A stretch of DNA of 64,000 bases, from IMG/VR virus record IMGVR_UViG_3300018079_000003, positions 1 through 64,000 of that record. One strand, written 5' to 3'. Source of the DNA: a virus. Positions 1 to 62,054 of this stretch are shown piece after piece (position 1 is the first letter of the stretch; each line of letters starts with the position of its first letter). Position numbers and translations under genes: made by a program. Below the pieces are notes generated by a model. It was not told where the DNA came from. It ran no database searches and saw only the letters and a list, made by a program, of their open reading frames with translations.

Positions 1-345
1 CCCCGGTCAGAATCCAGCGGACATGTCGTAATAACTTTCGCGCGCGTGTCCGTATCCCCGTCTTTAATCTCCACCGCGCCGATTTCAATATCAGAAACCG
101 TGAGAGTTACCGTATCTCCCCCCCGCTCCCAAGCCTACTATCTCTTTCAGCCGGCCAAGAATCTTCTTAAGAAGATTATGCTCCCCGTCCCCGCACCTAT
201 ACTCTGTTTCGTAATCGCAAGCCATTTTTAACCCACTGTTTAAACCGCAACCACCAACCCACTTTTTTGTCCACTTTTTTGTCCGCTTTTTTGCCCACCC
301 GCAAGTATAGGACGTTTATTTTAACCCGCTCTCGCAGAAAAAGAA

Positions 346-861
346 TCATATCGGGTGATCCCATTGAAACTTCAGCGCCAAGTCAACGGTAATTGCGGGC
401 GACCACGACATTTCATCGGGACGAACTTTAAACGAGTCTACGCGCTCTAACAAAGCCACCCCACCAACTGCCAAGCCGTCCATGCCAAATTCAGAGCAAA
501 AATATCTCGAATCCGACCGGCGCGGTTTAATCCCGCAAACAAAACAAATCACGCCCCAATAATCATATGGCGTGCCAAGTTCAGACTCACAAAAGACTCG
601 AACCGCCGCCGAATCAATTGGAACGCCGAGTTTAAACACAAAGGGCGTCACTCCCTTAGTGGATTTCAACGTAGTTTTACGCACCCCCTTGAACGGATAC
701 GCCTCATACACAATGCCGTCCTCAAACGCGATGGATACGTGCGCATATTTCGACCGGGAGAACCACCTAATTAAGGCGGCTCCAAACCCCTTACCGCGAT
801 AAAAATAAAGTCTCACGAACCTAGAATTTTCTTTTTCAACTGGTCGCGAGTTGGCACCCAA
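346..861 (-). CDS. Permuted papain-like / NlpC-P60-type amidase (YiiX/C92-like); candidate cell-wall hydrolase
   Basis: Motifs YAHVSI..G.VYEA (His region) and RYFCSEF (Cys region) are in the permuted order typical of the YiiX family. Last gene of the minus-strand arm. Confidence 0.4.
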   Translation of the reverse strand: MGANSRPVEKENSRFVRLYFYRGKGFGAALIRWFSRSKYAHVSIAFEDGIVYEAYPFKGVRKTTLKSTKGVTPFVFKLGVPIDSAAVRVFCESELGTPYDYWGVICFVCGIKPRRSDSRYFCSEFGMDGLAVGGVALLERVDSFKVRPDEMSWSPAITVDLALKFQWDHPI

Positions 862-1121
862 CCGTGCTCCACCGCCCGCAGAAGATTCATCTGTCGCTTT
901 GCCTTAGCGGGAGTCGTAGCCTTGGCTTTTACTCCGTGGGGGGACGCGACTCGCACCCTACCGCCGCCAATGGGTTTTGTTTTGTAAGGCATTGTTTATC
1001 TCCGTGTTGAAGAACCGCATGAGTCATATCCACTGTCCAACCAAATTTCACCCCTTCAATGTAGGGCATAAGATCAACAATATTGTCCGCAGGCAGATCG
1101 CTCATACATAAAAACAGTGCG

Positions 1122-2048
1122 CTATTTTGGACCAAAATGCGATGCGTAAGTTTGCGCTAAAGCGTCCTCCAAGCCCACCTGCGGTTGCCACCCCAAATCA
1201 AAAATTTTAGAGTTGTCCAATAATTTTTGCGGTGTTCCTGCGGGTTGGCTCGCGTCAAACTGAATGACTCCTTGATAGCCCACGGCGCGCGCGATAAAAT
1301 GTGCGATTTCATTTATGGAAAATTCCCGGCCGCTTCCGGTATTGATCGGCTCCGGGGCGTCGTAATCCTGCATCACCCGAAGTAACGCACGCGCCAGATC
1401 ATCAGAATAAAGTAATTCCCGCCGCGCCGTGCCCTCCCCCCATACAGTAAACGCCGGATCGCCCCGTAATTTCGCGTCATGCATCCGAGCCATCATGCCG
1501 GGAATAATATGCCCCGCCTCGCCGTCAAAAGTATCGTTTGGTCCAAAAAGATTACACGGCATTGCTGATACGAATTTACGCCCCCGCTCTCGGTAAAAAT
1601 ACTCACACAAAACCACTCCCGCGATTTTTGCTATCGCATACCCTCGATTTGTTTCTTCCAGCCGCCCTGACATTAAATATTCTTCCTTAATTGGTTGGCG
1701 GCAGTTTCTAGGATAAAGACAATTTGATCCCAGAAAAATCAATTTCTTTGCGCCATACGCCGCCGCGTTAAGAATTACATTCTGCTGTATCGCGAGGTTC
1801 TCACAAAGAAAATCCACCTGATGCGCGGCGTTATCTTTAATGCCCCCCACACGCGCCGCACACATGAAAACATACTCCGGGCGATACACCGAAAAAAACC
1901 ATTTTACCACAACTGGATCAGTGAGGTCCATCTCCTGTCGAGTCGCGGTAATCAGATGCTCGTGCCCTAATGACGCAAGCAACCGGACGAGCGCACTGCC
2001 CACGAGACCCCGGTGGCCTGCAATAAATATTTTAGATTGAATATTCAT
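1122..2048 (-). CDS. fcl: GDP-L-fucose synthase (GDP-4-keto-6-deoxy-D-mannose 3,5-epimerase/4-reductase)
   Basis: Collinear over its full length with E. coli Fcl/WcaG as recalled: [36 protein letters not shown]...RE.L..DD, FD.S.P.GTP.KLLD. Confidence 0.9.
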
Positions 2049-2079
2049 TTCTTAATTCGACTTGCTTGAAATTGAATAT

Positions 2080-2766
2080 TCATCTAGGAATACAAATCAA
2101 CTCGTGTAGATTCGCATCATATCGGCGAACTTCCCGGCAATTATATTGAGACAAATGGCCTAGAATTGACCCGGCGGTAAACCCCAACGGCGCAAGGGCG
2201 GCGGTAAACACTTCGACATGAATGACTGGCTTGTATTTTGCAATTAAATCTTTTGCTCCCGCCAACACCAGTGGCTCCCAACCTTCCGCGTCGATCTTTA
2301 AAAAATCCACCCGCGAGAATCCCAGGCGGTCCAGCGCGACTGTGCGATGAAAACCATCTCGAACCAGGGGCCGTCCACCGAGATGCCATTGTGCCCGCTC
2401 GCATGCCTCCGGCCCAGTCGAGCATTGATACAACTCATCTGAACCCACTGCCGCCTGATAGCAATGGGCCTCGGGGCAATTATGCACCAAACAGAAAAAC
2501 GCATCAGATTGAGGTTCAAATGCATATACCTCGCATCCCCGGAGCAAAAACATATGAGTTGTGTCTCCGATAAACGCCCCCACGTCAATGACGACCTGCC
2601 CCGGCACTAGCGCCCGGACCTCCGGCAAGCCGGTAAAATCATCGTCCCAATCCAACCGGCCCGCCCGCAGGGCCGATGCCGATCCCCCAAGATCGTCTGC
2701 CAAAACAATCTTTCCCGTCTCGCCGATTGGTGTGGTCTTAGGGATTTGCATGTTTAAACACCACAT
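2080..2766 (-). CDS. FkbM-family SAM-dependent methyltransferase
   Basis: VIDVGAFIGDTT SAM-binding motif and VDFLKIDAEGWEPLVLAGA, the FkbM signature. The start may be the ATG at 2751. Confidence 0.75.
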   Translation of the reverse strand: MWCLNMQIPKTTPIGETGKIVLADDLGGSASALRAGRLDWDDDFTGLPEVRALVPGQVVIDVGAFIGDTTHMFLLRGCEVYAFEPQSDAFFCLVHNCPEAHCYQAAVGSDELYQCSTGPEACERAQWHLGGRPLVRDGFHRTVALDRLGFSRVDFLKIDAEGWEPLVLAGAKDLIAKYKPVIHVEVFTAALAPLGFTAGSILGHLSQYNCREVRRYDANLHELICIPR

Positions 2767-3460
2767 GGTCTTGTATGAGACCGTGCAATACCGCTGCGGT
2801 CTTTACCGAATGTATCATCACCCGCCCGTAGAGCCGCACCAACTTCGACATCTCCGCGAACCCACGCTCGCTGGCCGTTTCAAAACTCGCCCCAGTGAAA
2901 AAACTGAGGTGCGGATGCCCACTGCCGCACGCAAGCTGAAGCATGTAATGGTCAATGCACTCGGTGGGAAACGGCATCGGCCAGTCCTCCGGGTTTTGCC
3001 GGGTATGATACGACGTGGGCAACTGGCAATCCAGCATCGCCCGGATACTTTTTCTCGATAAGAAGTATGGCGGCTGACAAGCCAACTTTGGCAACAATGA
3101 CGGCGCAGGATTTGTGTCCACTACCTCATTGGACCAGATCGTATCTGGCGATTCATAACAATACCGAGGAATCTCCGGCGACAGGCAAACTGAGTCCGCG
3201 TCGTGGAAAAGAAAATGCGCGTGCGGGAACTTCAGCATCAGTTCGAGAAATTTCCGATGCCGCTCCAGGGTCTGCGGCCCGATCCAGCCTTTCAGGCCGT
3301 CTGAAAGACAAATACAGCCCGGCATCTGCATGATCGGCGCATCGACGGGTGAAAATATCGCTACCGGGCACTCATGGTGCCGATAGATCGGAAGGTTGTG
3401 CTCGACTTGGTGCGCGTCTCCTGCGTAGGCCGAAACCACTACGAGTGTGTTGGGATTCAT
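2738..3460 (-). CDS. Putative glycosyltransferase, tandem paralog A
   Basis: Clear paralog of 3457..4164 (MNPNTLVVVSAYAGD vs MNPDTLVAVSCYAGD; FLFHDADS vs FLFNDSDS; WSNEVV; PPYFLSR). The DxD-like motif is DAD. Confidence 0.4.
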   Translation of the reverse strand: MNPNTLVVVSAYAGDAHQVEHNLPIYRHHECPVAIFSPVDAPIMQMPGCICLSDGLKGWIGPQTLERHRKFLELMLKFPHAHFLFHDADSVCLSPEIPRYCYESPDTIWSNEVVDTNPAPSLLPKLACQPPYFLSRKSIRAMLDCQLPTSYHTRQNPEDWPMPFPTECIDHYMLQLACGSGHPHLSFFTGASFETASERGFAEMSKLVRLYGRVMIHSVKTAAVLHGLIQDHVVFKHANP

Positions 3461-4676: not shown

Positions 4677-4763
4677 TTACGGCATCCCCCGGAACGCATC
4701 CGGTGCGCTAGCATTTGCGCCAACCCACGATAAAATTGGTCGTCAGAGAAGGCCCGCCCCACG

Positions 4764-4835: not shown

Positions 4836-4886
4836 TAATAGCCCGCACCTAAACTCGCTCATTACAAACGGTGGGCGGGCCATAAA

Positions 4887-5246: not shown

Positions 5247-5248
5247 AA

Positions 5249-6800: not shown

Positions 6801-6829
6801 TTGACTGTTTAAACAGTTTATGCGATAGT
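6801..6829 (+). promoter_or_regulatory. Sigma70-type promoter, leaderless configuration
   Basis: TTGACT-N17-GATAGT, with ATG 6835 five nt after the -10. The spacer begins with GTTTAAAC. Confidence 0.55.
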
Positions 6830-6834: not shown

Positions 6835-7086
6835 ATGAAAAAGATATCACAATACACTGACAGCGGAGGGGGTAACGGAGTAATTGACTATCCAGTGAAC
6901 GAATACGTGGTGCTGGGAAATCGGCTATTTCGTAAAATTGGAATGCAAAAAGTGCCGGTTCAGTGTCACTGGTTTACTAACAAGGAAGGCTCCTGTTTAA
7001 TGGACCAGTGGGGTTTCACGCATCAGATTGACTATCCGGTGAACGATTTGACAACGTTTAAACCATCTGATAATATAACAATATGA
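6835..7086 (+). CDS. Early hypothetical protein (cassette A)
   Basis: 83-aa ORF with an internal IDYPVN repeat. Its N-terminus MKKISQYTD is shared with 8364..8525. ATGA overlap with the next gene. Confidence 0.5.
   Translation: MKKISQYTDSGGGNGVIDYPVNEYVVLGNRLFRKIGMQKVPVQCHWFTNKEGSCLMDQWGFTHQIDYPVNDLTTFKPSDNITI
7048..7076 (+). promoter_or_regulatory. Sigma70-type promoter, leaderless configuration
   Basis: TTGACA-N17-TAATAT, with ATG 7083 six nt after the -10. It is embedded in the 3' end of the preceding ORF. Confidence 0.65.
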
Positions 7087-7361
7087 CATACAACCAAGCT
7101 GAAAAACTCGGAAACCGCCAAGATTTTATTCGCGAGTATGCTGCCGCCATGAAGGCGGATTGCGACTCGGGCAAGCACGCCTACATTATCCCGGCAGATG
7201 GATGGGAAGGGCTTGCGGCCCGGATGGTAGCGTCGATTCTTGTTGGACGGGCGCACGTTTCGGACGTTGCGAAGAAAATCGCCAAGAAGTTTGGGGCTAG
7301 GCCAACCGTGGCCGGGGTCACCGAATTGCTAAAGGGCCTGCCGGAAGCGGGCGGGCGGTAA
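7083..7361 (+). CDS. Early hypothetical protein (cassette B)
   Basis: 92 aa. N-terminus MTYNQAEKLGN is shared with 7693..8037. Confidence 0.55.
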   Translation: MTYNQAEKLGNRQDFIREYAAAMKADCDSGKHAYIIPADGWEGLAARMVASILVGRAHVSDVAKKIAKKFGARPTVAGVTELLKGLPEAGGR

Positions 7362-7407
7362 AATAAATTTGACAACCCAATCAAAAAAAATCTACTGAAA
7401 GGATCAA

Positions 7408-7650
7408 ATGAAAATCGAAATTACAGGCGCGATGGTGAATATCCACAAAGAGGAATCGGACAAACGGTTCAAAAACGATTCGCAGTTCTTTTATGCGTTG
7501 CGTAACGCACTTCGGGCGCAAGGCCGCGATGAGCGGAGCGCGGGCCTGTATTGCATGCATGACCGCAATAGGAATGGGTCTGTAAATTTTCGATGTGGTC
7601 GCGCATACAATAAGGATGGGTCTGTAAATTTTCGATTGGAACGGCAATAA
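7408..7650 (+). CDS. Early hypothetical protein (cassette C)
   Basis: 80 aa. Paralog of 8068..8367 (MKIEITGAMV..KEESDKRF..DSQFFYALRNALRAQGRD). AAAGGA SD-like sequence 5 nt upstream. Confidence 0.6.
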   Translation: MKIEITGAMVNIHKEESDKRFKNDSQFFYALRNALRAQGRDERSAGLYCMHDRNRNGSVNFRCGRAYNKDGSVNFRLERQ

Positions 7651-7657
7651 TAAAAAT

Positions 7658-7686
7658 TTGACAACGTTTAAACAATCTGATACTAT
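7658..7686 (+). promoter_or_regulatory. Sigma70-type promoter, leaderless configuration
   Basis: TTGACA-N17-TACTAT, with ATG 7693 six nt after the -10. Near-duplicate of 7048..7076. Confidence 0.65.
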
Positions 7687-7692
7687 AACAAT

Positions 7693-8037
7693 ATGACATA
7701 CAACCAAGCAATCGAAAAACTCGGAAACCGTGAGCAGAAAAAGATCGCTAACAATACCTACCTTTGCCGAAGGCAGGATGGGGCAGTGGCGGTCCGGCTG
7801 CATGCGACAGACATCCTGACCTTCCGGCCTGATGGTAGTGTGGTTCTTACCACTGGCGGCTGGCGTTCGGTGACCACCAAGGCGCGCTTGAACGCCTACT
7901 GCCCCATCGGGCGCGGGATTGGCCAACGGGCCGGCGTGTGGTATCACGGCTCAACTAAGGTTGAAATGATGGAAGGCGACCGCATCAATGAAGCCACGGG
8001 CGCAGTTTGGCGCACGGACGGCACCGTGGTGCTTTAA
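7693..8037 (+). CDS. Early hypothetical protein (cassette B')
   Basis: 114 aa. Shares promoter and N-terminus with 7083..7361, then diverges. Confidence 0.55.
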   Translation: MTYNQAIEKLGNREQKKIANNTYLCRRQDGAVAVRLHATDILTFRPDGSVVLTTGGWRSVTTKARLNAYCPIGRGIGQRAGVWYHGSTKVEMMEGDRINEATGAVWRTDGTVVL

Positions 8038-8067
8038 TTGGCTCGGCCATATTACTGAAAGGATCAA

Positions 8068-8367
8068 ATGAAAATTGAAATTATAGGCGCGAGGGTGATT
8101 GTCCGCAAAGAGGAATCGGACAAACGGTTCCGAAGTGATTCGCAGTTCTTCTATGCGCTGCGCAACGCATTGCGCGCGCAAGGCCGCGACGTGATTAAGA
8201 AGCTGATGGCCAAGGATGGTCACATGGTCAGCGCGGGTGTTTACTACATCCGCGACCGCAAAGGCGCGTATGCAATTCATGACCAAAACTATCAGATTGC
8301 TAGCGCGGCAGAAGACTTTAATAAGGATGGATTCGTAAATCTCAGACTTGAGCGATTGTCGGCATGA
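8068..8367 (+). CDS. Early hypothetical protein (cassette C')
   Basis: 99 aa. Paralog of 7408..7650 with the same ACTGAAAGGATCAA upstream sequence. Confidence 0.6.
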   Translation: MKIEIIGARVIVRKEESDKRFRSDSQFFYALRNALRAQGRDVIKKLMAKDGHMVSAGVYYIRDRKGAYAIHDQNYQIASAAEDFNKDGFVNLRLERLSA

Positions 8368-11763: not shown

Positions 11764-12654
11764 ATGAGAATTTTAAAGAAACATATTCAAAAACTAAATT
11801 CCATTCTTGATTCGGGCTTGATCAGAGGGTCCGGCAGTAAAGCCAAGCCGGGAAATATCTGCGTTGAGCAGGCGGTTTGTATCGCGCTTGGTTACAAATT
11901 CTCCGACAATCCACCGTGCGTCTCGCGCGCTTTTCGTTCTCTGAAAATGCGGCTGAATGATTGCTCTGGTTGGTCGTCTAATAAAGCGCGGGCCGAAGGA
12001 TTGCGAAAACTCGCTGTCGTGCAAATTGGTTCTCGCGGCGCGTTGGATGATCAGGAATTTACCCGGCGAGTCACCGAAGCTACAATCCAACAAATTATCC
12101 CTCGTGCGCTTCGTAATGCTGCAAAAGTTTGTCCGCGCTATGCTGAACGGCTTGAAGCGGCGGCTGTTCGTTGCATGCAGGAAGGCACGCGGAAGGCGGC
12201 ACTTGCGGCTAAAGAAATCGCCGGTCGCGCCGCCACCACCGCCAACGTTGCCGCCACCACCGCCGCCAACGCCAGCTACGCCGCCACCGCCGCCGCCAAC
12301 GCCGCCGCCACCACTGCCGATGCCGCCCGCTACGCCGTCAACGCCGCCAACGCCGCCGCTGACTGCGCCGCCGACTGCGCCCACGCCGCCAACGCCGCCG
12401 CCGCTGCCGATGCCGCCGCCAGCGCCGCCCACGCCGCCGATGCCGCCACCACTGCCGCCGCCGACTGCGCCCACGCCGCCGATGCCGCCGCCACCACTGC
12501 CGTTGCCGCCCGCTACGCCGCCCACGCCGCCGATGCCGCCGCCAATAAAGCAACGGCGCGCGATGCCGAAATGATTTTTTTCGCCGATATGGTGCTGGCG
12601 ATCCTTGTAGATATGGCAGTGCCCGGCGTGAAATACCTCAAATGGATCAAGTAA
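11764..12654 (+). CDS. Protein with an Ala-rich periodic repeat domain
   Basis: A globular N-terminal ~150 aa, then ~105 aa of xAA-periodic sequence (ARYAAHAADAA, ADCAHAADAA), then a short hydrophobic C-terminus. Confidence 0.55.
   Translation: MRILKKHIQKLNSILDSGLIRGSGSKAKPGNICVEQAVCIALGYKFSDNPPCVSRAFRSLKMRLNDCSGWSSNKARAEGLRKLAVVQIGSRGALDDQEFTRRVTEATIQQIIPRALRNAAKVCPRYAERLEAAAVRCMQEGTRKAALAAKEIAGRAATTANVAATTAANASYAATAAANAAATTADAARYAVNAANAAADCAADCAHAANAAAAADAAASAAHAADAATTAAADCAHAADAAATTAVAARYAAHAADAAANKATARDAEMIFFADMVLAILVDMAVPGVKYLKWIK
12228..12546 (+). repeat. GCC-rich low-complexity coding repeat
   Basis: Degenerate GCCGCC(A/G)(C/A)C units. The region is open in several frames on both strands. 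Confidence 0.85.
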
Positions 12655-15499: not shown

Positions 15500-15829
15500 A
15501 TGAATTATTCTGACGATACGGCCCGGCTAAACTGGCTGGAAGCCCATGGGGCCGGGCTTAATAGTCCAGGCGGATGGGCGCATGTTTGGGTTACGGGTGA
15601 TTTTGATCGCCCATCACATTATTACGGGGAAACATATCGCAGTGTGATAGACCGCGCAATGGGGTATGGCCCCGGCACGCCCGCCACCCGGCGCGGCAAA
15701 AGGTCGCATGAATTTTCAGTTGGTGTCTGTGTCTCAATGGTCACTCCTGATAAAGGAGCGCGGCAGGTTACGTCATTACCCTGCCGCGCTCCCAAATTTT
15801 ATGGCCTACGTCCATGGATTATTAAATGA
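15500..15829 (+). CDS. Hypothetical protein
   Basis: MNYSDDTARLNWLEAHG.... Internal ATG of track ORF 15440..15829, chosen from the promoter geometry. Confidence 0.45.
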   Translation: MNYSDDTARLNWLEAHGAGLNSPGGWAHVWVTGDFDRPSHYYGETYRSVIDRAMGYGPGTPATRRGKRSHEFSVGVCVSMVTPDKGARQVTSLPCRAPKFYGLRPWIIK

Positions 15830-16713
15830 TTAGCTCGTATCCATCTATTTACACCATCGGCCACCGCTACATCGCCAACCTTTTCAATGGCCGGGTGGTC
15901 ATCGAAGAAAAAGTTGACGGTTCGCAGTTTTCTTTCGGCGTTTTCGACGAGCAATTAATCTGTCGGTCTAAAGGTCAACAAATCCAACTGGGCGATCCCG
16001 GCATGTTTAGCAAAGCGGTGGAAACGGTTGGCGCGTTGCGTAATAAACTCACGCCGGGCTGGACCTATCGCGGCGAGTATCTTCAGAAGTCCAAGCATAA
16101 TTGCCTTGCTTATGAACGCACGCCAGTGGGAAATATTATTATTTTCGACGTGATGACCGGGGGCGAGCATTACCTCGATCCCGCGACTAAGTGTACGGAG
16201 GCGGATCGTCTCGGTTTAGAATGCGTCCCGTGTTTTTATTCGGGTGAGGGAAGCGCGGTCGTGCTGCTATCACTCGCGGATTATTTTCAACGTGACTCGG
16301 TTCTCGGCGGCGTGAAAATCGAGGGCGTGGTCGTGAAAAACTACGATCAGTTTGGTGGGGACAAGCTTATTCTGGTGGGCAAGTTTGTCAGCCCGGCTTT
16401 TAAAGAGAAACACCAGACGGAGTGGAAAATCTCCAACCCAACTAAGACGGACGTGGAGCAACAACTCATCGCGGAGTTGACCACGGAAGCCCGCTGGCGC
16501 AAGGCCGTGCAACACTTACGCGAGGCGGGCAAGATTACGGATACGCCCACGGACATCGGCGCGATCATGCTTGAAGTAAAGGCCGATATTCTCAAGGAGG
16601 AAGCCGAATATATTAAAGAAGTGCTGTTTAAACACTTCTGGCCGAAGATTGCGCGCGGCGTGACTGCGGGAATCCCGGAATGGTATAAGAAAGATTTGGG
16701 GTTGTTATCGTGA
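15826..16713 (+). CDS. ATP-dependent RNA/DNA ligase (KxDG nucleotidyltransferase, RNA_ligase-family-like)
   Basis: Motif I EEKVDGSQ, RGEYL, IIFDV (motif III), EGVVVK (motif IV), LVGKFV (motif V). Confidence 0.65.
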   Translation: MISSYPSIYTIGHRYIANLFNGRVVIEEKVDGSQFSFGVFDEQLICRSKGQQIQLGDPGMFSKAVETVGALRNKLTPGWTYRGEYLQKSKHNCLAYERTPVGNIIIFDVMTGGEHYLDPATKCTEADRLGLECVPCFYSGEGSAVVLLSLADYFQRDSVLGGVKIEGVVVKNYDQFGGDKLILVGKFVSPAFKEKHQTEWKISNPTKTDVEQQLIAELTTEARWRKAVQHLREAGKITDTPTDIGAIMLEVKADILKEEAEYIKEVLFKHFWPKIARGVTAGIPEWYKKDLGLLS

Positions 16714-20490: not shown

Positions 20491-20536
20491 CCGATAACAT
20501 GGTTTTTTTAATTTGTATTACCGTCGTGGTCGTGGT

Positions 20537-20893
20537 ATGGGTATGGAAAAGCGACTGAAAGTTTTATATGTTGCCGGTCCTTTCCGCGCGGCGAATGCGT
20601 GGGAGGTAGAACAGAACATCCGTCGCGCCGAAGCCCTCGCCCTTGAGGCGTGGCGATGCGGCTGCGCGGTGATTTGTCCACATACTAACACCCGATTTTT
20701 TTCCGGCGCGGCCCCGGACCCTGTATGGCTCGACGGCGATTTGGAAATGTTGCGCCGTTGTGATGCGATCCTGATGACGCCGGATTGGAAAAGATCGTCC
20801 GGCGCAACGAAAGAATGGGAACTGGCCCGCGAATTAGATATGGCGGTGCTTTACTCGATAGAAGACTTAAAAGAATGGCTTGAGTATGTTTAA
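20537..20893 (+). CDS. Nucleoside 2-deoxyribosyltransferase-like protein (DUF4406/DUF1937-like)
   Basis: VLYVAGPFRA...E.N...A......G..V.CPH......WL..DL..L..CD....PDW..S.GA..E pattern. Confidence 0.55.
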   Translation: MGMEKRLKVLYVAGPFRAANAWEVEQNIRRAEALALEAWRCGCAVICPHTNTRFFSGAAPDPVWLDGDLEMLRRCDAILMTPDWKRSSGATKEWELARELDMAVLYSIEDLKEWLEYV

Positions 20894-21458
20894 ACGGGGC
20901 ACATTATCGGTCCTGTTTGGCGTCCACCAATTTTTGTGGCATCCGTTTACTGTGTGGCGGGCGTGGCGCTACCTGTATAAGAAAAATCCATCCGCTTACG
21001 AATTGCTCGCAATAATTTTTCACGATACCGGATATGTCGGAAAATCTACGATGGACGGTCCTAATGGACGCACTCATCCAGAGGGCGGGGCAAAGATTGC
21101 GATGTATGCGGCTTACGTATTGGCGCGTCTTCGTGGTAGGAGTTGTGCGGACGCCACCATCATCGGATTGCGGATTTACAAACTAAGTCTATTCCATTCA
21201 ACTCATTACGCCCAACTAAAAGACGCGCCGGTATCGGCGCTGTACCTACCGGACAAGGTCTGTATCCTTTTCGATCCGCCGTGGTTCTATAAGTTGCGCG
21301 CGCGTCTGTCCGGCGAGTTGGCGGAATACGTCAATAATGAAAACCATGCTCGTGGGCAATTCCTGTTTACGGCGGATCAATGGCTAACGCAGTATCGTGA
21401 AAAAATATTGAAGAAGGCTAACGACTATCTCGAAGAACGATGTCGCCCGAAATTTTAA
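20880..21458 (+). CDS. Possible HD-domain phosphohydrolase
   Basis: The only recognisable cues are IFHDTGY and a later HSTHY. Confidence 0.3.
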   Translation: MSMFKRGTLSVLFGVHQFLWHPFTVWRAWRYLYKKNPSAYELLAIIFHDTGYVGKSTMDGPNGRTHPEGGAKIAMYAAYVLARLRGRSCADATIIGLRIYKLSLFHSTHYAQLKDAPVSALYLPDKVCILFDPPWFYKLRARLSGELAEYVNNENHARGQFLFTADQWLTQYREKILKKANDYLEERCRPKF

Positions 21459-25373: not shown

Positions 25374-25592
25374 ATGGCAGATCGACAAGCACAAAATTGT
25401 AACTGGGACGTTCGAGACGATGACGGCACAATTACGTGGGAACGTGCGGGTATTGCGGTGCTGATGGATATTCGTCGAGAATTAAAGACGCTTAATCAGA
25501 TTTTGCACTGTCAGAATTTTCTTGCCATCCCGCATAAGCTGGACCGCATTCGGATCAATACCACCCGGCGCAAGCGCCGAAGAAAGATTTGA
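25374..25592 (+). CDS. Small hypothetical protein with a basic tail
   Basis: 72-aa ORF. Its TGA stop lies inside the next TTGACA. Confidence 0.4.
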   Translation: MADRQAQNCNWDVRDDDGTITWERAGIAVLMDIRRELKTLNQILHCQNFLAIPHKLDRIRINTTRRKRRRKI

Positions 25593-25617
25593 CAGTGTTT
25601 AAACTTTGTGCTATACT
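25589..25617 (+). promoter_or_regulatory. Sigma70-type promoter with a very short leader
   Basis: TTGACA-N17-TATACT, with ATG 25627 nine nt after the -10. The spacer contains GTTTAAAC. Confidence 0.6.
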
Positions 25618-25626: not shown

Positions 25627-26277
25627 ATGAAAGATAAATCGTTAAAACATGAAACTCGGGAGGGATGGCTGCTCGCAGCGGTCGCTCTCATGCGTCCCTT
25701 GTTCTCGGACAGGGGTTATACCGTCCCGCAAGTGCGGGTGTCCTGCGGCTGGCCTTCCAGTCGCGCGTTGAGTGCTAAAAAGAGGTGCCTCGGAGAGGCG
25801 TGGTCGAAAGATGCGTCGTCTGAAAAGATTGCGAATATTTTCATCACGCCGTGGTTGGAAGAAAAACCCGATGAGGACCAAGGAATTTTGCCCACCCTGA
25901 TCCACGAATTGGGGCATGCGACGGTTGGAAACAAAGAGGGTCATAATAAAGTTTTTGGTAAATGTGTCCGGGCAGTGGGTCTGACCGGCAAGCTTACTTC
26001 GACTCATGCGAGTAAAGAACTGCTCGAACAATGCGTGGCGTGGCACAAGGAATTGGGCGAGTTTCCGCATGGTAAACTCGACTCCAACAAACGTCCGAAG
26101 AAAAAGCAAACCACCCGCTTGATCAAATGCGAGGACAAAGCCAGCGGTTATACCGTCCGCATCACTCGCAAGTGGTTGGAGGAAGGCGGCGCGCCGATTT
26201 GCCCGCTGAATAACAAACCCATGACTTACGAAATCCCGGACGATCTGGATTTCGACGGGGAGGGCGACAATGAATAG
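25627..26277 (+). CDS. SprT-like zinc metallopeptidase domain protein
   Basis: HELGHA zincin motif in an SprT-like context (LIHELGHATVG..GH...F). Confidence 0.65.
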   Translation: MKDKSLKHETREGWLLAAVALMRPLFSDRGYTVPQVRVSCGWPSSRALSAKKRCLGEAWSKDASSEKIANIFITPWLEEKPDEDQGILPTLIHELGHATVGNKEGHNKVFGKCVRAVGLTGKLTSTHASKELLEQCVAWHKELGEFPHGKLDSNKRPKKKQTTRLIKCEDKASGYTVRITRKWLEEGGAPICPLNNKPMTYEIPDDLDFDGEGDNE

Positions 26278-26727: not shown

Positions 26728-27204
26728 ATGAAGCAAATCCCCCTCACTAAGGGCATGGTTGCGACGGTAAGCAATCAGTGGTTCAAAAAACTTTCTAAAG
26801 TAAAGTGGTATGCGCAGAAATGTGGGCTTCACTACTATGCGGCGCGGCGGGATCGGGCGGGGCGACTCATTTTGATGCATCGGGTTATCATGGGGGCGAC
26901 GGCAAGACAGGTGGTTGATCATCGAGATTTATGCGGGTTAAATAATTTACGACGAAATCTTCGTTTGGCCTCTCATTCACAAAATCATGGAAACCAAAAG
27001 AAATATTCGGGACGGTTTACCAGTCGGTTTAAAGGAGTGTGCCGGTCGAATGCCAACGACTACAATCCATGGATTGCTTACATAACTGTCGATTCTAAAC
27101 GTCGGTATCTTGGGTATCATTCTACTCCCGAAAAAGCTGCCCGCGCGTATAATAAAGCGGCCCGACATTTGTTTGGTCCTTTTGCATTGTTAAATTTGGT
27201 ATGA
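26728..27204 (+). CDS. HNH homing endonuclease with an AP2 DNA-binding domain
   Basis: VDHRD...NN.R.NLR..S...N (HNH), followed by FKGV...W.AYI......YLGY..T.E.AARAYN.AA...FG.FA.LN (AP2). Confidence 0.8.
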   Translation: MKQIPLTKGMVATVSNQWFKKLSKVKWYAQKCGLHYYAARRDRAGRLILMHRVIMGATARQVVDHRDLCGLNNLRRNLRLASHSQNHGNQKKYSGRFTSRFKGVCRSNANDYNPWIAYITVDSKRRYLGYHSTPEKAARAYNKAARHLFGPFALLNLV

Positions 27205-33045: not shown

Positions 33046-33734
33046 AACCAACTATTCCAATTCCCAGTCGAGAACAAGTGACTCAACAACAAATGGGTGC
33101 GTTGTTGACTTCGATTGCAACGTTGCTGCCGTATTTTCATATTGACCATGAAGACTGGAAAGGCGGCGCGCTGGACGGCGGCACCAAAATCGCAGTTCAA
33201 AATACGTTAATTGGGCTATGTGAGCGGATAGATTCAATTTTGGCGGATGCGCAACGTTGGACTCTTGACGAAGCCCAGAAACTTGAGACCCAACTTGGCG
33301 ATCTTTACACCGAACACGCGAATGTTTTGCGCGCGCAACAGGAACAGCTTGCATATATGGGAAAACCACATGTGCGGCACGGCCCCGCGTTATTTCGACT
33401 CGCGGATGGGGGTTGGGGGGCGATCCTCGGCAGTTTAAACGATCTTGACAATTCGATTGTTGGCGTCGGGGGTTCGCCCGCGCAGGCGTTGGAAGCTTTC
33501 GACGAGATGTTCAACGGTCGCATTCCCTCGCATCTTCAAGCATGGATTGCCGTCCGCGAGGAAGCCCTTAAAAATAATTTAACGCCACCTAACTATGAAA
33601 AAACAAAATTGGACCCCGGAACAAGTCGAGACTCTAAAGCGCCTGAAGGCGGAAAAAGTCAGCCACGACGTAATCGCAAAGACCCTCGAAAAGACCAAGA
33701 CGGCAGTGGACCGAAAGGTGGATCATCTACCTAA
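33042..33734 (+). CDS. Hypothetical protein
   Basis: ATGA-coupled start. The last ~140 nt overlap 33595..34608 in another frame and encode a low-complexity tail, so the true 3' end is uncertain. Confidence 0.4.
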   Translation: MKPTIPIPSREQVTQQQMGALLTSIATLLPYFHIDHEDWKGGALDGGTKIAVQNTLIGLCERIDSILADAQRWTLDEAQKLETQLGDLYTEHANVLRAQQEQLAYMGKPHVRHGPALFRLADGGWGAILGSLNDLDNSIVGVGGSPAQALEAFDEMFNGRIPSHLQAWIAVREEALKNNLTPPNYEKTKLDPGTSRDSKAPEGGKSQPRRNRKDPRKDQDGSGPKGGSST

Positions 33735-34608
33735 AATCCCCACTACTGTCGATCCCATCAAACAAGAGGCGTCAAAAGTGCCGCGAGAATTTGGCCGCAT
33801 GCCGCTTACGGTTTTCGATTCGGGCGATTGGACTCGTCTCGGATTGGTTTCCGATACCCACCTCTGCTGCCGGGAGGAACGTTTGGATGCTCTCCATGCA
33901 CAGTATGACCTTTTCGAGCAAGAGGGGATTACGACGGTTTTTCATGCGGGCAATCCGGTTGATGGTTACATCCAAAGAATTAACGGGGCGTCCGTCTTCG
34001 AGACCACCCCGGATGGACAGGCGCAGTATTTCGTGGACAACTACCCCAAGCGCGAGGGCATCGTCACGAATTTTATAACCGGGGACGATCACGAATCTTG
34101 GTTCGCGCCGGGCTTCAACTTTGGGGCCTATCTGGACATGGTTGCAAAATCCCAAGGGCGTGAGGATTTGAATTATATTGGCCATGTCGAGGCCGATGTG
34201 GAATTGCGTTGCGGGGAATTCAAACAGATTATGAAAATCCAGCACCCCGGAGGCGGCTCGGCCTACGCGCGCTCTTACAAAGGCCAGAAGATGGTGGAGT
34301 CCTTTCAGGGCGGTGAGAAGCCCGCTATCCTCGTGCAGGGCCACTACCACGTCAGCGGTTATTCGTTTGACCGCAATGTTCATATTATCGGGATGCCGGG
34401 GTTTCAAGACCAAACCATTTTCGGTCGCAAGAAACACCTGCGGTTTGAGATCGGCGGCGTGATTCTGGAATTTAAGATGTCTCCGGTCACTGGGGCCATT
34501 ACCCGGTTGCGTCCTGAATTCACCATGTATTTCGACCGGGGATTTTATAAGGCGTTTTTGAAGTCGGACGCACGACTGCTGAAAGGACATGTCATAATTA
34601 ACACATGA
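33595..34608 (+). CDS. Calcineurin-like metallophosphoesterase with a GcrA/Myb-like N-terminal HTH
   Basis: VSDTH, HAGN, GDDHE, HPGG and GHYH phosphoesterase motifs. The N-terminus WTPEQVETLKRLKAEKVSHDVIAKTL..TKTAVDRKV resembles the GcrA N-terminal domain. Confidence 0.65.
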   Translation: MKKQNWTPEQVETLKRLKAEKVSHDVIAKTLEKTKTAVDRKVDHLPKIPTTVDPIKQEASKVPREFGRMPLTVFDSGDWTRLGLVSDTHLCCREERLDALHAQYDLFEQEGITTVFHAGNPVDGYIQRINGASVFETTPDGQAQYFVDNYPKREGIVTNFITGDDHESWFAPGFNFGAYLDMVAKSQGREDLNYIGHVEADVELRCGEFKQIMKIQHPGGGSAYARSYKGQKMVESFQGGEKPAILVQGHYHVSGYSFDRNVHIIGMPGFQDQTIFGRKKHLRFEIGGVILEFKMSPVTGAITRLRPEFTMYFDRGFYKAFLKSDARLLKGHVIINT

Positions 34609-49542: not shown

Positions 49543-50874
49543 TTATGCGGGCGTAACCACGCCCTCGCGAATTTTTACCGAAAAAGTATTCATCGTGCGC
49601 GCGGCGCTCGCAAGATTTTTAACACCATAAGCGTGCCGCATCGCCGTGTCGGCAGTTGGAAGGGTGGTTATAACCGTCGCGACCAAGGCGCTCCCGATAT
49701 AAAATCGAATTTCCCCCCCGCCTCGATTCCACTCAATTCGGAATAGTTGTCCCACCGTTGTGCTTGGCGCAACGCCCGTATCCACAACCGTCTGACTGGT
49801 TCCGTCACACACCACGGCTTGCCAATTCGTATCCGGGAGCGACGTTGAAAAGCGGAATCCAACAAACACTACGGTCATCGTTTCGGTCTGCAAAAATAAA
49901 TTGGCAGCGGTCGCGTTAGTGTATCCAAGCCACGAACGAGTGCTGACCGTCTCGTTCAGCTTGACCCACATAACTGTCTTATTGTTTAAACTAAACAATC
50001 GAAACGACGTGGTGGGGGATTCGTAATAGGCCGAATTGTTTGTAGTCGCCGATGTGCGTAGGTCACGACCCTGTGGATTGTTTGCGTCGGCGGCAACCGC
50101 GTTTACCGAAGACGCCGTGGAAGTCCATGCATCCCCGATTAGTGTAACGCCGCCATTATGAAAATTCTGAGATCGCTCCGCAAAAAATAACCAATCACTA
50201 ACCGTCCCGCCCGCACCCGGAGGCCCCGTCGCGCCGGTATCACCCTTGTCCCCTTTCGGGACAAAATCAATAACGACTTCATCCGGTTGGACCAACGTTC
50301 CTGATTTAACGATGTTCGCGACCGTGAAAGTATCCCACGTCCCGTTATCGGTAATTACCCCGCTAATTGAAAAAATTGAAAAGACCGCTGGATTGGTTTT
50401 TTTGCGAACTGTTAAGGTTCCCCTGATAGTTGAAGTGCTGTCGTCCCACGTCGCCAGATACGCCGATAGACTATTCGTATCATCGTCTGTCTCGGAAATA
50501 AACAGCGCCGTCGCGAGGGCCAGATCGGCATTATTAAACCGCAAAACTCCCGCGCCGGGATCGCCCGATGAAGTCGTGCCGCTGTAAACGTAGTTAAGCC
50601 CGGTGCTGACTCCATCCGCCCCATTCGTGCCGTTGGTTCCATTCATTCCGGGCGCTCCATCATTTCCGGGAACACCTTGAATGCCTTGCGGGCCGGGGTC
50701 ACCCTCGGGACCGGTCGATCCAGCCGGACCGGTTGCGCCCACTGGACCCTGCGCTCCAACAAAATCAGGAGGCACCCGCCGCAATCGAAATACGTCCGGC
50801 GAAATTTCCACGGTGCAAATCACAAACCCATCTTCGACGATAGCGTTCCAAATTGGAATTTCAGATACCCTCAT
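49543..50874 (-). CDS. Collagen-like tail fibre protein
   Basis: A G-X-Y run GAQGPVGATGPAGSTGPEGDPGPQGIQGVPGNDGAPGMNGTNGTNGADG and a second run GDKGDTGATGPPGAGG. Confidence 0.65.
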   Translation of the reverse strand: MRVSEIPIWNAIVEDGFVICTVEISPDVFRLRRVPPDFVGAQGPVGATGPAGSTGPEGDPGPQGIQGVPGNDGAPGMNGTNGTNGADGVSTGLNYVYSGTTSSGDPGAGVLRFNNADLALATALFISETDDDTNSLSAYLATWDDSTSTIRGTLTVRKKTNPAVFSIFSISGVITDNGTWDTFTVANIVKSGTLVQPDEVVIDFVPKGDKGDTGATGPPGAGGTVSDWLFFAERSQNFHNGGVTLIGDAWTSTASSVNAVAADANNPQGRDLRTSATTNNSAYYESPTTSFRLFSLNNKTVMWVKLNETVSTRSWLGYTNATAANLFLQTETMTVVFVGFRFSTSLPDTNWQAVVCDGTSQTVVDTGVAPSTTVGQLFRIEWNRGGGEIRFYIGSALVATVITTLPTADTAMRHAYGVKNLASAARTMNTFSVKIREGVVTPA

Positions 50875-51074
50875 ATATTATCCACGCAAAGAAAATCGTT
50901 GTTATCTTCTAAAACAACCACACTATTATCTTCCAATAAAAAATCACAGGCTTCGATAGAAAGCAGAGGTGGGACGTTTAAACTATACCGACTCGCCCGG
51001 ATGAACCGCGCCGGGGGGCAACACGAATTCGCTAAATCCGGCCCGCGATAAACCGGTTTATTGCAATTTGACAT
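50871..51074 (-). CDS. Small hypothetical protein (possible fibre chaperone)
   Basis: 67-aa ORF filling the gap between the two fibre genes, with an ATGA overlap to the downstream fibre gene. Confidence 0.3.
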   Translation of the reverse strand: MSNCNKPVYRGPDLANSCCPPARFIRASRYSLNVPPLLSIEACDFLLEDNSVVVLEDNNDFLCVDNI

Positions 51075-54719: not shown

Positions 54720-55448
54720 CTATTTTCCCAAAAGGGATTCACGAGAATAGCTCATCAAACTTCCATCTTTAACCCCATGGATGAACGCCCATCCCTGTTT
54801 TTTTAACCACTCGTATTCTTTAAATTCCATCGTCCTCTGCCCGCAACGGTTCAGATTTTTCTGCGAAAAGCCTACCCCCCACTCCGTAAACTTTGGAAAC
54901 AGATAAATGTCCCACGGCTGTTTGGGGGGCACGCCGGTCATAGTTATGCCCATCACCAACCATTTCAGGAAATCGAGGTTCCCAGTTACCATGATATTAC
55001 CGTTCAAATGCTGGGAACAGTTAAACGTATCGGATGACTCGGCTCCGACCAAGCAAGTGTTTAAACGAATGAACTCTTCGTTACACTCATTGATCCACGT
55101 TTTCGAGATCGGGACCACATCGGCCTCAAGAGCTATGATCCATTTGTAATCTGGTATTTTTCCTTGAGACTTCATGTGGTAGAACCATTCCATCAACGAA
55201 AACCAAAGAACCCAACACCCCCACGGGTGCCCCTCTCCGTGCGCGACACACCGGAGTTTACGAACGTTGAATTTCCTAGACACATGCGCCACGGCTGCCT
55301 CATCATGATCACAGTCCCACCTCGCGATGAAAACAAAATCAATATCGTCCCGGCGCACGGGTTCAATATCGGCAATGAACTTTGCCAGCCGCATCGCTTT
55401 AACTTTATCACCTGCCCAGAATTGAACGGCAATGATTCCTTTTTTCAT
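54720..55448 (-). CDS. Putative glycosyltransferase (GT-A-like)
   Basis: N-terminus IIAVQFWAGD resembles VVSAYAGD of the 2738/3457 paralogs. ALEADVVP is an acidic motif in the DxD position. Confidence 0.35.
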   Translation of the reverse strand: MKKGIIAVQFWAGDKVKAMRLAKFIADIEPVRRDDIDFVFIARWDCDHDEAAVAHVSRKFNVRKLRCVAHGEGHPWGCWVLWFSLMEWFYHMKSQGKIPDYKWIIALEADVVPISKTWINECNEEFIRLNTCLVGAESSDTFNCSQHLNGNIMVTGNLDFLKWLVMGITMTGVPPKQPWDIYLFPKFTEWGVGFSQKNLNRCGQRTMEFKEYEWLKKQGWAFIHGVKDGSLMSYSRESLLGK

Positions 55449-58799: not shown

Positions 58800-58802
58800 A
58801 AA

Positions 58803-59108: not shown

Positions 59109-59129
59109 AGGGTGTTATGGGTTTATAGT

Positions 59130-61181: not shown

Positions 61182-61193
61182 ACGGTCTAATAA

Positions 61194-61222
61194 TCAGTGG
61201 CGTTTTTTGGGCCGTTTGTCAC
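61194..61222 (-). promoter_or_regulatory. GTGACA-N17-CACTGA promoter candidate
   Basis: Lies 12 nt upstream of portal ATG 61181 and overlaps the stop of 61219..61500. Confidence 0.4.
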
Positions 61223-61500
61223 TTGACATATTTACGCCTCCAAACCCTTTTCCATTTATTTAGAGGGCACATCTCAAGGGCCAACATACATTTTGACTCT
61301 ACCATGCAAGTGCAAACACGGCACTGCTCGCCGTTTACCAATTCCGGGCAGGTATTACAAATTCCCATACGTTCCCCCCACTCTTTATCCGTTACAAGCG
61401 TTTCAAAATTAAAAAACCAACCGAAAAATCTTCGCAACTGCGCCGCCGTATAGCGAAAAGGACTGTCCCATCTAAATATCATTGTATTTTCATCCAACAA
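61219..61500 (-). CDS. Small Cys-rich (zinc-binding?) protein
   Basis: CNTCPELVNGEQCRVCTCMVESKCMLALEMCPLNKW. Confidence 0.45.
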   Translation of the reverse strand: MLDENTMIFRWDSPFRYTAAQLRRFFGWFFNFETLVTDKEWGERMGICNTCPELVNGEQCRVCTCMVESKCMLALEMCPLNKWKRVWRRKYVK

Positions 61501-62054
61501 AACGACGGAAGGTCGGGATTATTCACGCGCGGCTCGTCGAGATGCGCCGCTACGGAGGTATCGAAGCCCAAACGGTCGCAAGAGTTTAAACGACTATCTA
61601 AGACTCTCCGGGGAAGAATATCGTCGCGCAATTCGCTCAACGCGCGCCGACACGACGAGCATCCGCCCGATGCCTCAACGTTAAATTGACATTTGGCACA
61701 GATGTGGGCCCGCTGCTTGGCTTCCTCGGGCGAGACAAACCGCAGTTCTTTCTTCCGACGCCGAGTCTCCGCCAACCACTGCAACATTTTCCCTTTTAAT
61801 GACCTATGATTGCCCCCCGCGATGGGAACGGGTGGGGGAGGATTCTGCTCCGAACACAACGACGGATTATTCTGGCAAGCCTGCTCATGAATTTCTTTTT
61901 CTGGATCACCCCGCTCCAAATTATTTACCTTTCGGTAAACTTTCACGCGCGTAATCAGGTCATTCCATCCCTTAGAACTTCTCAAAAGCGTGCCATCAGG
62001 AAGCTTAAAGACAAACCCGTTTGACGGATAAAGATTTACGTTAATACGAATCAT
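61479..62054 (-). CDS. Hypothetical Cys-motif protein
   Basis: 191 aa containing CAKCQFNVEASGGCSSC. Confidence 0.45.
   Translation of the reverse strand: MIRINVNLYPSNGFVFKLPDGTLLRSSKGWNDLITRVKVYRKVNNLERGDPEKEIHEQACQNNPSLCSEQNPPPPVPIAGGNHRSLKGKMLQWLAETRRRKKELRFVSPEEAKQRAHICAKCQFNVEASGGCSSCRRALSELRDDILPRRVLDSRLNSCDRLGFDTSVAAHLDEPRVNNPDLPSFCWMKIQ

Follow-up and report, generated by a model that had tools for sequence, protein, structure and literature searches.

Short DNA words that recur along a whole genome have been described in several systems. The stoperators of cluster A mycobacteriophages are 13-bp asymmetric, nearly all intergenic sites that are read by a helix-turn-helix (HTH) immunity repressor of temperate phages (gp71 in L5). 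HIP1 (GCGATCGC) is the highly iterated palindrome of cyanobacterial chromosomes, is confined to one phylum and has been linked to methyltransferases. Chi (e.g. GCTGGTGG in E. coli) is asymmetric, orientation-dependent and host-specific and is read by RecBCD/AddAB, and cluster K mycobacteriophages have start-associated sequences, which occur at gene starts only and comprise the ribosome-binding site. In our study we analyzed positions 1-64,000 of the IMG/VR virus record IMGVR_UViG_3300018079_000003 (64,000 nucleotides, G+C 51%; hereafter the window), in which the exact 8-bp palindrome GTTTAAAC is strongly over-represented. The same sequence is the restriction site of PmeI/MssI. We found that the octamer is under selection at the DNA level and that it recurs across phages from hosts of several phyla together with a gene for a SprT-like, Spartan-related protein whose C-terminal tail varies with it. 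None of the precedents stoperators, HIP1 and Chi has a protease-like reader or spans phyla, and our literature search returned nothing on GTTTAAAC, on its one-letter variant GTTTACAC or on sequence-specific phage SprT proteins.

An exact search identified 16 copies of GTTTAAAC in the window, corresponding to 0.25 per kb. An earlier note on this DNA had counted 14; all of these positions are exact, and two copies, at 630 and 49984, had been overlooked. Its estimate of about one expected copy agrees with the 0.85 derived from base composition (order 0). Markov models of orders 1-4 expect 1.3-1.9 copies and order 5 expects 3.6, all far below 16, while order 6 expects 10.5 from a model built largely from the motif's own 7-mers and therefore nearly self-referential. 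None of 100 dinucleotide shuffles reached 16 copies (maximum 7). Within the 70 open reading frames (ORFs) of at least 80 codons we observed 11 coding copies compared with 2.16 ± 1.34 after synonymous-codon shuffling, which preserves protein sequence and codon usage, and not one of 500 shuffles reached 11. Since the Markov and shuffle nulls fall short, composition, codon usage and protein sequence are excluded as the source of the excess. GTTTAAAC is the commonest palindromic 8-mer of the window, whereas many GC-rich 6-bp palindromes are nearly missing (observed vs expected: GGCGCC 0 vs 52, CCGCGG 1 vs 48, GCCGGC 5 vs 51, CGGCCG 3 vs 43); CGATCG (0 vs 25), GGATCC (0 vs 21) and TCCGGA (0 vs 23) are avoided as well. 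This strong avoidance of 6-bp palindromes implies a host rich in restriction systems.

The genes of the window run leftward from 1 to 5.7 kb, rightward from 5.7 to 34.7 kb (early and replication genes) and leftward again from 34.8 to 64 kb (late genes). Of the 16 copies, 12 belong to the first 34.7 kb and 4 to the late block. The copies of GTTTAAAC, and the promoters that contain four of them, are the following:

238-245: copy 1, near the left end, downstream of the minus-strand ORF 346-861; of uncertain coding status, with a small ORF (197-364) here.
630-637: copy 2, within the minus-strand ORF 346-861 (phrog_1128), read gtG-TTT-AAA-Ctc (V-F-K-L).
2752-2759: copy 3, at a minus-strand gene junction, in the final codons of ORF 2738-3460 (V-F-K-H) and also directly 5' of the ATG (GTTTAAAC-ATG) of the FkbM-type methyltransferase ORF 2080-2766.
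6801-6829, plus strand: sigma-70-like promoter TTGACT-N17-GATAGT; copy 4 (6807-6814) abuts the -35 and is separated by N9 from the -10; ATG at 6835.
7048-7076, plus strand: sigma-70-like promoter TTGACA-ac-GTTTAAAC-catcTGa-TAATAT with copy 5 (7056-7063) in an N17 spacer; ATG at 7083.
7658-7686, plus strand: paralogue of the 7048 promoter, TTGACA-ac-GTTTAAAC-aatcTGa-TACTAT, with copy 6 (7666-7673) in an N17 spacer; ATG at 7693.
16626-16633: copy 7, in the RNA-ligase-like gene 15826-16713 (L-F-K-H); the orthologous codons in the relative L001 retain the site.
20888-20895: copy 8, overlapping the stop codon (GTT TAA) of the DUF4406 gene 20513-20893.
25589-25617, plus strand: sigma-70-like promoter TTGACA-gt-GTTTAAAC-tttgTGc-TATACT with copy 9 (25597-25604) in an N17 spacer; the SprT-like gene has its ATG 9 nt further on.
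28796-28803: copy 10, in the DNA polymerase A gene 27201-29210 (x-F-K-R).
30650-30657: copy 11, in the 735-amino-acid ORF 29574-31781 (V-F-K-P); found in this genome only (relatives have F-Q or F-R).
33433-33440: copy 12, in the interval from ORF 32506-33045 to ORF 33595-34608, followed after 4 nt by a TTGACA; of uncertain coding status.
49984-49991: copy 13, in the late minus-strand ORF 49543-50874, frame aGT-TTA-AAC (S-L-N).
50976-50983: copy 14, in the small minus-strand ORF 50871-51074, S-L-N frame.
55059-55066: copy 15, in the late minus-strand ORF 54720-55448, R-L-N frame.
61584-61591: copy 16, in the late minus-strand ORF 61479-62054, R-L-N frame.

In the left and middle blocks the reading of coding copies is xxG-TTT-AAA-Cxx (Phe-Lys), and in the late minus-strand block it is xGT-TTA-AAC (Leu-Asn). 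The previous statement that the copies outside promoters lie in coding regions holds for these two frames and is uncertain for 238 and 33433. The four late copies (49984, 50976, 55059 and 61584) are always in the frame xGT-TTA-AAC and hence contain U-UUA-AAC, the classic slippery heptamer of -1 frameshifting. Probably this is a consequence of that frame being the only other one free of stops. A -1 frameshift reading of the four late genes would leave the copies in the Phe-Lys frame and in promoters unexplained. Besides, copy 1 adjoins a tandem direct repeat (CCACTTTTTTGT-CCACTTTTTTGT-CCGCTTTT) at 246-290.

The promoter geometry described previously at 6801, 7048, 7658 and 25589 was reproduced by a sigma-70 scan, in which the 25589 promoter is the top hit between 20 and 35 kb with 11 of 12 consensus matches. 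A fifth promoter had been proposed at 20888; this site fails the scan, overlaps a stop codon and has no counterpart at the orthologous place in four relatives, and its resemblance to a promoter is probably a coincidence. In all four promoters the octamer is situated between the -35 and the -10 and thus within the footprint of RNA polymerase. The ATG follows only 5-9 nt after the -10 in each of them, so that several early transcripts are essentially leaderless. The 7048 promoter, whose ATG lies 6 nt past the -10 (near-leaderless), drives a 92-amino-acid ORF (7083-7361), and the 7658 promoter drives a 114-amino-acid ORF (7693-8037; Pfam Kyano_Gp96). Genes neighbouring these leaderless early promoters use an AAAGGA ribosome-binding site instead. 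The two promoters belong to duplicated early cassettes (7040-7100 and 7650-7710), in which promoters and first codons (ATGACATACAACCAAGC) are near-identical. Similarly, between 7395-7440 and 8055-8100 the ORFs 7408-7650 and 8068-8367 share the start gaaaggatcaaATGAAAATyGAAATTA, and we regard these as paralogous early gene pairs.

The phage is novel: cultured phages gave no match in a megablast search with 7 kb of the window, and the DNA polymerase shares only ~25% identity with known phage ones. We compared it with eight IMG/VR relatives (L001-L008) whose DNA polymerases are 56-70% identical to that of the window. The relatives carry 1-5 copies of GTTTAAAC in 12-22 kb, where 0.1-0.3 are expected. 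Conservation of the coding sites, which the earlier note had proposed to check, holds for the density; in codon alignments a few sites persist and most positions turn over. The polymerase site x-F-K-R (copy 10) persists in four lineages, among the relatives in L001, L002/L003 and L007, where a codon for Ala, Met or Gln provides the first G in its wobble position. Moreover, sites in relatives were created by amino-acid replacement, namely from K-L-N to R-L-N or C-L-N, from F-Y-S-W to F-K-R-W and from Y-R-G to F-K-R. As few sites persist and most turn over, several of them via a residue change, selection acts on the number of sites and not on particular sites. The octamer is also biased towards the early half of the genome: in the relatives, 119 kb from the replication region contain 23 copies, compared with 20 in 363 kb of late-region DNA (3.5-fold; z ~4.4 by hand), and both densities exceed expectation. 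The promoter of the SprT operon retains GTTTAAAC in the -35/-10 spacer in 8 of 8 relatives with differing flanks and offset, and in L009, L014 and L020 the motif likewise lies in the spacer of the SprT promoter. The notion of a fixed place in promoter spacers therefore needs to be narrowed: in orthologous promoters the octamer is always between the -35 and the -10, but its offset to the -35 varies by ~4 bp.

Two scans of IMG/VR with DNA patterns only, one with a promoter-like 16-mer and one with two copies 15-45 bp apart, retrieved ~50 loci with 5-37 copies on contigs that are otherwise unrelated and range from 31 to 60% G+C. The densest locus has 37 copies of GTTTAAAC in 12.4 kb, and 3-4 per kb are reached in L028, L047, L060 and L117. 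Across 30 hyper-enriched loci (243 kb) we counted 473 exact copies vs 7.7 expected; one-mismatch variants, with 151 vs 156, are at expectation. Recognition is all-or-none over eight bases. Within a locus the copies are spaced more evenly than random (coefficient of variation (CV) 0.6-0.7), with a single gap below 25 bp vs 24 expected. The majority of copies in hyper-enriched loci lie in coding DNA, and in L028, L047, L022, L078 and others many genes have the motif between Shine-Dalgarno sequence and ATG (GGAG-n-GTTTAAAC-ATG). At position 6872 of L028 it is found at the tip of a terminator-like hairpin. In these phages an amidoligase-like and a glutamine-amidotransferase-like gene form a pair that adjoins the SprT gene, an assignment that is a reading of the sequences alone. 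An operator of the HutC/GntR type, GTnTAnAC, was considered and discarded, as the scanned ORFs include no GntR-like protein and one-mismatch sites are not enriched.

A single gene of the window accompanies the octamer in other phages:

25627-26277, plus strand: gene for a SprT/Spartan-like zinc metalloprotease of 216 amino acids, directly behind the 25589 promoter.

Its product is the only window protein with tblastn matches in the motif-rich IMG/VR loci. The gene was detected in 27 loci, each of which has four or more copies of GTTTAAAC, and in none of ~60 loci with 2-3 copies. Accordingly, profile hidden Markov models (HMMs) of the 14 commonest families of motif-rich loci gave a single window match, again the SprT-like ORF (E=1e-56). 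A homolog is encoded in merely 164 of 50,697 cultured phage records; by chance one would therefore not expect the gene in every motif-rich lineage. We also fetched loci from bacterial genomes by protein similarity alone and scored the motif afterwards. GTTTAAAC was the top over-represented 8-mer of such contigs assigned to Gammaproteobacteria (8 copies), Competibacterales (8), Planctomycetota (6 and 5) and Actinomycetes (4); in a Bacteroidota contig it is enriched (8 copies) and other 8-mers rank higher. In the prophage-like loci L179 and L189 the copies extend over only a part of the fetched DNA. Among cultured phages, Dinoroseobacter phage R5C (L147) has 10 copies in 50 kb vs 0.37 expected, again as the top octamer. 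R5C pairs this enrichment with a full 7-deazaguanine DNA-modification set (QueC/D/E, FolE and a DpdA-like transglycosylase). The actinophages Arthrobacter phage KeAlii (L144) and Microbacterium phage Zeta1847 (L146) lack GTTTAAAC and instead carry the one-letter variant GTTTACAC, which is the top octamer in both and in Streptomyces phage Intolerant (L194), with 23, 22 and 13 copies, respectively, vs ~0.5 expected. In KeAlii and Zeta1847 it occurs after the promoter -10, between Shine-Dalgarno sequence and ATG and inside genes. Apparently this actinophage enrichment is unreported, also in the preprint on cluster AZ discussed below.

The presence of a SprT-like gene alone does not predict the motif. 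Bordetella phage CN1, Microbacterium phage Brahms, phage Epa5 and ~20 Polynucleobacter loci from one SprT clade encode the protein; CN1 and Brahms are free of the motif and the Polynucleobacter loci have no GTTTAAAC. Therefore, we refined the comparison to the protein's tail. When the sequences were grouped by motif status, all those from motif-bearing genomes showed K-K-Q-[T/S/G]-T-R-x-x-K just before a C-terminal zinc ribbon and a conserved Arg in a ribbon strand. Signature and ribbon Arg are lost in all motif-free ones, namely Brahms, CN1, the Polynucleobacter clade and the divergent copy in L004. For protein-selected loci of at least 6 kb, scored for enrichment of GTTTAAAC or, in actinophages, GTTTACAC, 23 genomes whose SprT has the Q[TSG]TR tail are enriched and 6 are not, whereas without the tail none is enriched and 21 are not (Fisher p=5e-9, not corrected for phylogeny; the signature-free proteins represent four independent clades). 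Four further cultured phages, fetched as predictions, behaved as predicted: Epa5, which lacks the signature, has 0 copies, while Burkholderia phage Mica (KKKQTTR) has 4 GTTTAAAC vs 0.06 expected, Pseudomonas phage Persinger (PPKQTTR) 2 GTTTAAAC vs 0.05 and Intolerant (PKKQGTR) 13 GTTTACAC vs 0.4. Mica and Persinger each have one of their copies 23-26 bp ahead of the SprT start, and with KeAlii included the range is 23-31 bp. That the SprT promoter always has the motif was rejected as a general rule, as this holds in the window family and several others and overall amounts to ~3-fold above chance. In the temperate phages Mica (L195), Persinger (L196), KeAlii and Zeta1847 the SprT-like gene is the integrase's neighbour where the early operon ends, a position that may point to a part in the lysogeny decision or in maintaining the prophage.

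The window protein has the HELGH motif at 93-97, KKQTTR at 159-164 and a degenerate, zinc-ribbon-like hairpin at the C-terminus. The HExxH motif and the downstream third His are present, with H93, E94, H97 and H106 invariant in both of our alignments (A1 and A2). It matches phrog_6361 (E=8e-40), a family without an assigned function, its homologs are annotated as SprT-like protease and many close ones have a precomputed hit to PF10263. The AlphaFold2 model reached a predicted local distance difference test (pLDDT) score of 85. Its best, though weak, fold matches are SPRTN and Wss1 (PDB 6mdw, 5xbv); in these and in bacterial SprT (PF10263) a HExxH zincin core is followed by a small zinc-binding subdomain that binds DNA. 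Unlike the reader proposed here, those proteins bind DNA independently of sequence at single-strand/double-strand junctions. For them no cognate sequence, genome-wide site array or KKQTTR arm has been described, and fold and Pfam support for the relationship is weak in our case.

With regard to the iterated sites introduced above, the octamer can be compared with L5-type stoperators, as many copies of a short site are spread across a phage genome, some at promoters and others within transcription units, and as in our proposal one phage-encoded protein would read them all. The actinophage GTTTACAC is, like them, asymmetric, strand-biased and located in short intergenic gaps. Nevertheless, GTTTAAAC differs from stoperators in being an exact 8-bp palindrome that is mostly genic, reaches up to 3-4 per kb, occurs in several phyla and has a metalloprotease-like candidate reader. 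Stoperators are oriented with transcription and mainly intergenic, whereas the window motif is palindromic, GTTTACAC is split 4:9 between the strands in Intolerant and at least 9 of the 16 window copies are inside well-supported ORFs. Like HIP1, the octamer is an exact 8-bp palindrome which reaches kilobase-or-higher density in coding and non-coding DNA alike (as in L028, L047, L060 and L117), but it is borne by phages and prophages, tracks a phage gene and crosses phyla, in contrast to the chromosomal HIP1. The occurrence of Chi in phage genomes has been discussed (PMC3784561). With Chi it shares that an over-represented exact octamer would act along the DNA by density more than by position; unlike Chi, it is palindromic and identical across hosts. 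It equals the PmeI/MssI site in sequence and in the all-or-none requirement for 8 of 8 bases, yet it is enriched 10- to 60-fold and not avoided, and ~50 scanned ORFs of the window contain no cognate enzyme gene. Similar to the start-associated sequences of cluster K, the word stands just upstream of starts in L028, L047 and L022 (and as aaggaggacGTTTACACatg in KeAlii), whereas most copies of GTTTAAAC are inside genes or promoters.

A function at the DNA level, as argued for in the earlier note, is well supported by a codon-preserving null that was beaten, by the enrichment of the exact 8-mer only, by sites that arose through residue changes and by the rank of the octamer as top 8-mer across phyla. 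Among the roles suggested there, a site for a regulator or another DNA-binding protein fits best, while a replication or packaging signal is unsupported because the sites are dispersed and turn over. The partner gene and the reach beyond this phage had been missed. The reading that we find best supported is that the octamer may be the DNA address of the SprT-like protein, serving as operator where it sits in early promoters and as scattered loading site in other places; judged from sequence comparison, we give this proposal about an even chance. Direct binding of the octamer by the SprT-like protein is an assumption that we mildly favour. The C-terminal module, composed of the basic KKQTTR arm and the small zinc-ribbon hairpin with its conserved Arg, would read the exact octamer. 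A protein bound in the -35/-10 spacer would block RNA polymerase and could thereby provide negative autoregulation and shut-off of a few early genes. Such promoter occlusion is plausible, if somewhat short of an even chance. Retention of the spacer copy in 8 of 8 relatives with an offset shifting by ~4 bp fits steric occlusion and speaks against both a phase-dependent activator and a promoter element. The genic copies may be loading or tethering sites which hold a DNA-activated protease on the phage's own DNA, and a role that depends on DNA coverage fits their dispersed, evenly spaced and early-biased distribution. Spartan-type proteases are activated on DNA. The tethered protease might remove proteins bound or cross-linked to phage DNA, such as host silencers, defence nucleases or roadblocks. 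Tethering of the protease as the purpose of the array is proposed by analogy with Spartan, and we consider it distinctly doubtful.

Several points weigh against this proposal. The case for the SprT-like protein as reader is a comparative correlation throughout, many enriched loci were chosen via the motif and the SprT clades are non-independent samples. Six signature-positive loci, which are short or borderline, show no significant enrichment. Outside the window family the motif is near the SprT start in 11 of 34 cases vs 3.5 expected, which is a ~3-fold excess. Furthermore, the palindrome suggests a dimeric or restriction-type reader, whereas GTTTACAC is asymmetric with opposite strand majorities (19:4 in KeAlii and 16:6 in Zeta1847 vs the 4:9 in Intolerant). 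Concerning the protein itself, PF10263 matches with E=2e-3 and 18.3 bits, below the cut-off of 25.6, and a profile search of PDB sequences gave no hit. The top PDB fold match, the SPRTN SprT domain 6mdw, is weak (E=0.05, probability 0.72, template modelling (TM) score ~0.32), with Wss1 5xbv also listed. The family consensus of the ribbon is KCECxxCGY...APxCP, and in the window copy (KCEDKASGY...APICP) two of four Cys are replaced, so that it lacks a four-cysteine zinc ribbon. Finally, any reason for a protease to require as many as 3-4 sites per kb is speculative. We place the array with a known kind, the dispersed cognate sites of a phage DNA-binding protein, but the chance that it is categorically new, with a sequence-addressed DNA-dependent protease, is substantial.

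The alternative that survives best is that another phage protein reads the octamer, either a divergent small regulator or the following sigma-like protein, and that the SprT-like gene is no more than a neighbour which is regulated through it or inherited along with it:

31778-32509, plus strand: gene for a sigma-70-family protein (Pfam Sigma70_r4, region 4, E=1.6e-9), conserved in relatives.

Sites in promoter spacers are classic repressor operators, and a sigma-like gene is present in the window family, in KeAlii and Zeta1847 and, more weakly (E ~1e-15 after iteration), in seven hyper-enriched loci. Nevertheless, Curtobacterium phage Halsey, which is syntenic with KeAlii and has the sigma-like gene without a SprT-like gene, contains no copy of any GTTTANAC, and Brahms combines a sigma-like gene and a signature-less SprT with the complete absence of the motif. 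Therefore, the motif follows the SprT tail and not the sigma-like protein, which is disfavoured as reader. Moreover, a search for sigma-like ORFs in what was fetched of R5C and of the loci from metagenome-assembled genomes (MAGs) was negative; for Mica and Persinger, outside that search, the record annotation lists none. Cluster AZ Arthrobacter phages have been described as encoding a sigma-like HTH protein together with a SprT-like protease upstream of the integrase (10.1101/2025.05.26.655371). The same preprint describes a cluster related to AZ without the protease and mentions no repeated octamer (10.1101/2025.05.26.655371). Halsey is an example of this protease-free arrangement. No KeAlii ORF is shared with Zeta1847 and at the same time absent from both motif-free relatives, Halsey and Brahms. 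Hyper-enriched phages have in common a 76-amino-acid protein with a LexA-N-terminal-like winged helix, which would be a further candidate; it was rejected as reader since the window has no homolog. A different reader also leaves the covariation with the SprT tail signature unexplained, and overall we regard this alternative as improbable.

The octamer could also be the target of a restriction-modification or epigenetic system, in which a methyltransferase or a PmeI-like enzyme acts on it and the excess stems from methylated sites used as signals or from a drive powered by repair. Reading an exact 8-bp palindrome in an all-or-none manner is what type II enzymes typically do, and the intense avoidance of palindromes elsewhere in the genome shows that restriction pressure is real. 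A methylation target had likewise been among the suggestions of the earlier note. Among the ~50 scanned ORFs of the window, which do not include all late ORFs, there is however no DNA methyltransferase or restriction domain, and the sole methyltransferase is the FkbM-type one adjoining sugar-modifying genes. Restriction targets are avoided and not enriched 10- to 60-fold, and the same word in phages of hosts from several phyla argues against such a target as well. A conversion drive was rejected as it predicts depletion of one-mismatch variants, which are not depleted against a Markov expectation that is itself contaminated by the motif. We give a restriction-modification target only a slim chance.

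A site for a host factor that the phage mimics or exploits, i.e. a Chi-like signal for a recombination nuclease, a nucleoid-protein site or an RNA polymerase contact, has in our view a very slim chance. Chi is a precedent for an over-represented octamer with exact recognition, and the even spacing (CV 0.6-0.7; 1 gap below 25 bp vs 24) would fit protection along the DNA. Host recognition sequences vary among phyla, whereas here the same octamer is found in cultured phages with alpha-, beta- and gamma-proteobacterial hosts and in contigs binned to Planctomycetota and Bacteroidota, unlike a host-lineage-specific signal such as Chi. Besides, the copies in L179 and L189 end part-way through these prophage-like loci, and closely related phages on similar hosts differ completely (KeAlii vs Brahms and Halsey). 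Hardly credible is a promoter element for a phage sigma factor, or a fixed spacer of early promoters, with the coding copies as cryptic promoters or by-products. Four copies do occupy sigma-70-type spacers and the one in the SprT promoter is conserved, but orthologous promoters differ by ~4 bp in the distance of the octamer from the -35, the motif lies upstream of the -35 in R5C and downstream of the -10 in KeAlii, and other good promoter matches lack it. Copies at 3-4 per kb in genes or between Shine-Dalgarno sequence and ATG cannot be promoters. That the octamer has no function and merely results from base composition, from the usage of codons or dipeptides or from common ancestry finds some comfort in the sixth-order Markov expectation, built as it is from the motif's own 7-mers, and is effectively refuted by the lower orders (0.9-3.6), the codon shuffle (2.2 vs 11), the independent origin of sites with amino-acid changes, their exactness and their recurrence in unrelated phages.

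Other features of the window were noted in addition. Between the SprT operon and the DNA polymerase gene a HNH homing-type endonuclease is encoded at 26728-27204 on the plus strand (phrog_99, E=9e-31). It is probably mobile, because homologs occur elsewhere in L005 and L006 and are absent from other relatives. An endonuclease VII gene is located at 29207-29608. At the left end (1122-2766, minus strand) a NAD-dependent epimerase/dehydratase (E=2e-54) is encoded next to the FkbM-type methyltransferase, a sugar-modifying set which is unusual for a phage. Octamers of the CCGCCGCC type occur 33 times in the window, 9 of them within 280 bp at 12260-12536 inside ORF 11764-12654, which suggests a low-complexity, GC-rich coding repeat.

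If the link between octamer and SprT-like protein holds, users of the system could be recognized from sequence alone by a SprT-like gene with KKQ[T/S/G]TR and an iterated octamer. It would give a function to the common annotation "SprT-like protease", and a protease would join the few readers of dispersed genome-wide sites. Furthermore, it would explain why one palindrome is kept at 10- to 60-fold excess in a genome which purges restriction palindromes. The density of the octamer may serve as a practical marker for early vs late modules and for phage vs host DNA in prophage-like regions, and cultured models exist in R5C, Mica, Persinger and the Arthrobacter cluster AZ phages. Tentatively, and on the unlikely side, the findings may reflect a widespread, undescribed phage system in which a Spartan-like protease gained sequence specificity via its KKQTTR/zinc-ribbon tail and the octamer marks early self DNA. 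If this is true, the protease would be addressed to self DNA, where it would autoregulate and strip or degrade host proteins that bind or attack the incoming genome. It would then be the first sequence-addressed protease of the DNA-protein-crosslink type and would represent a new class of genome-wide viral self-marking.

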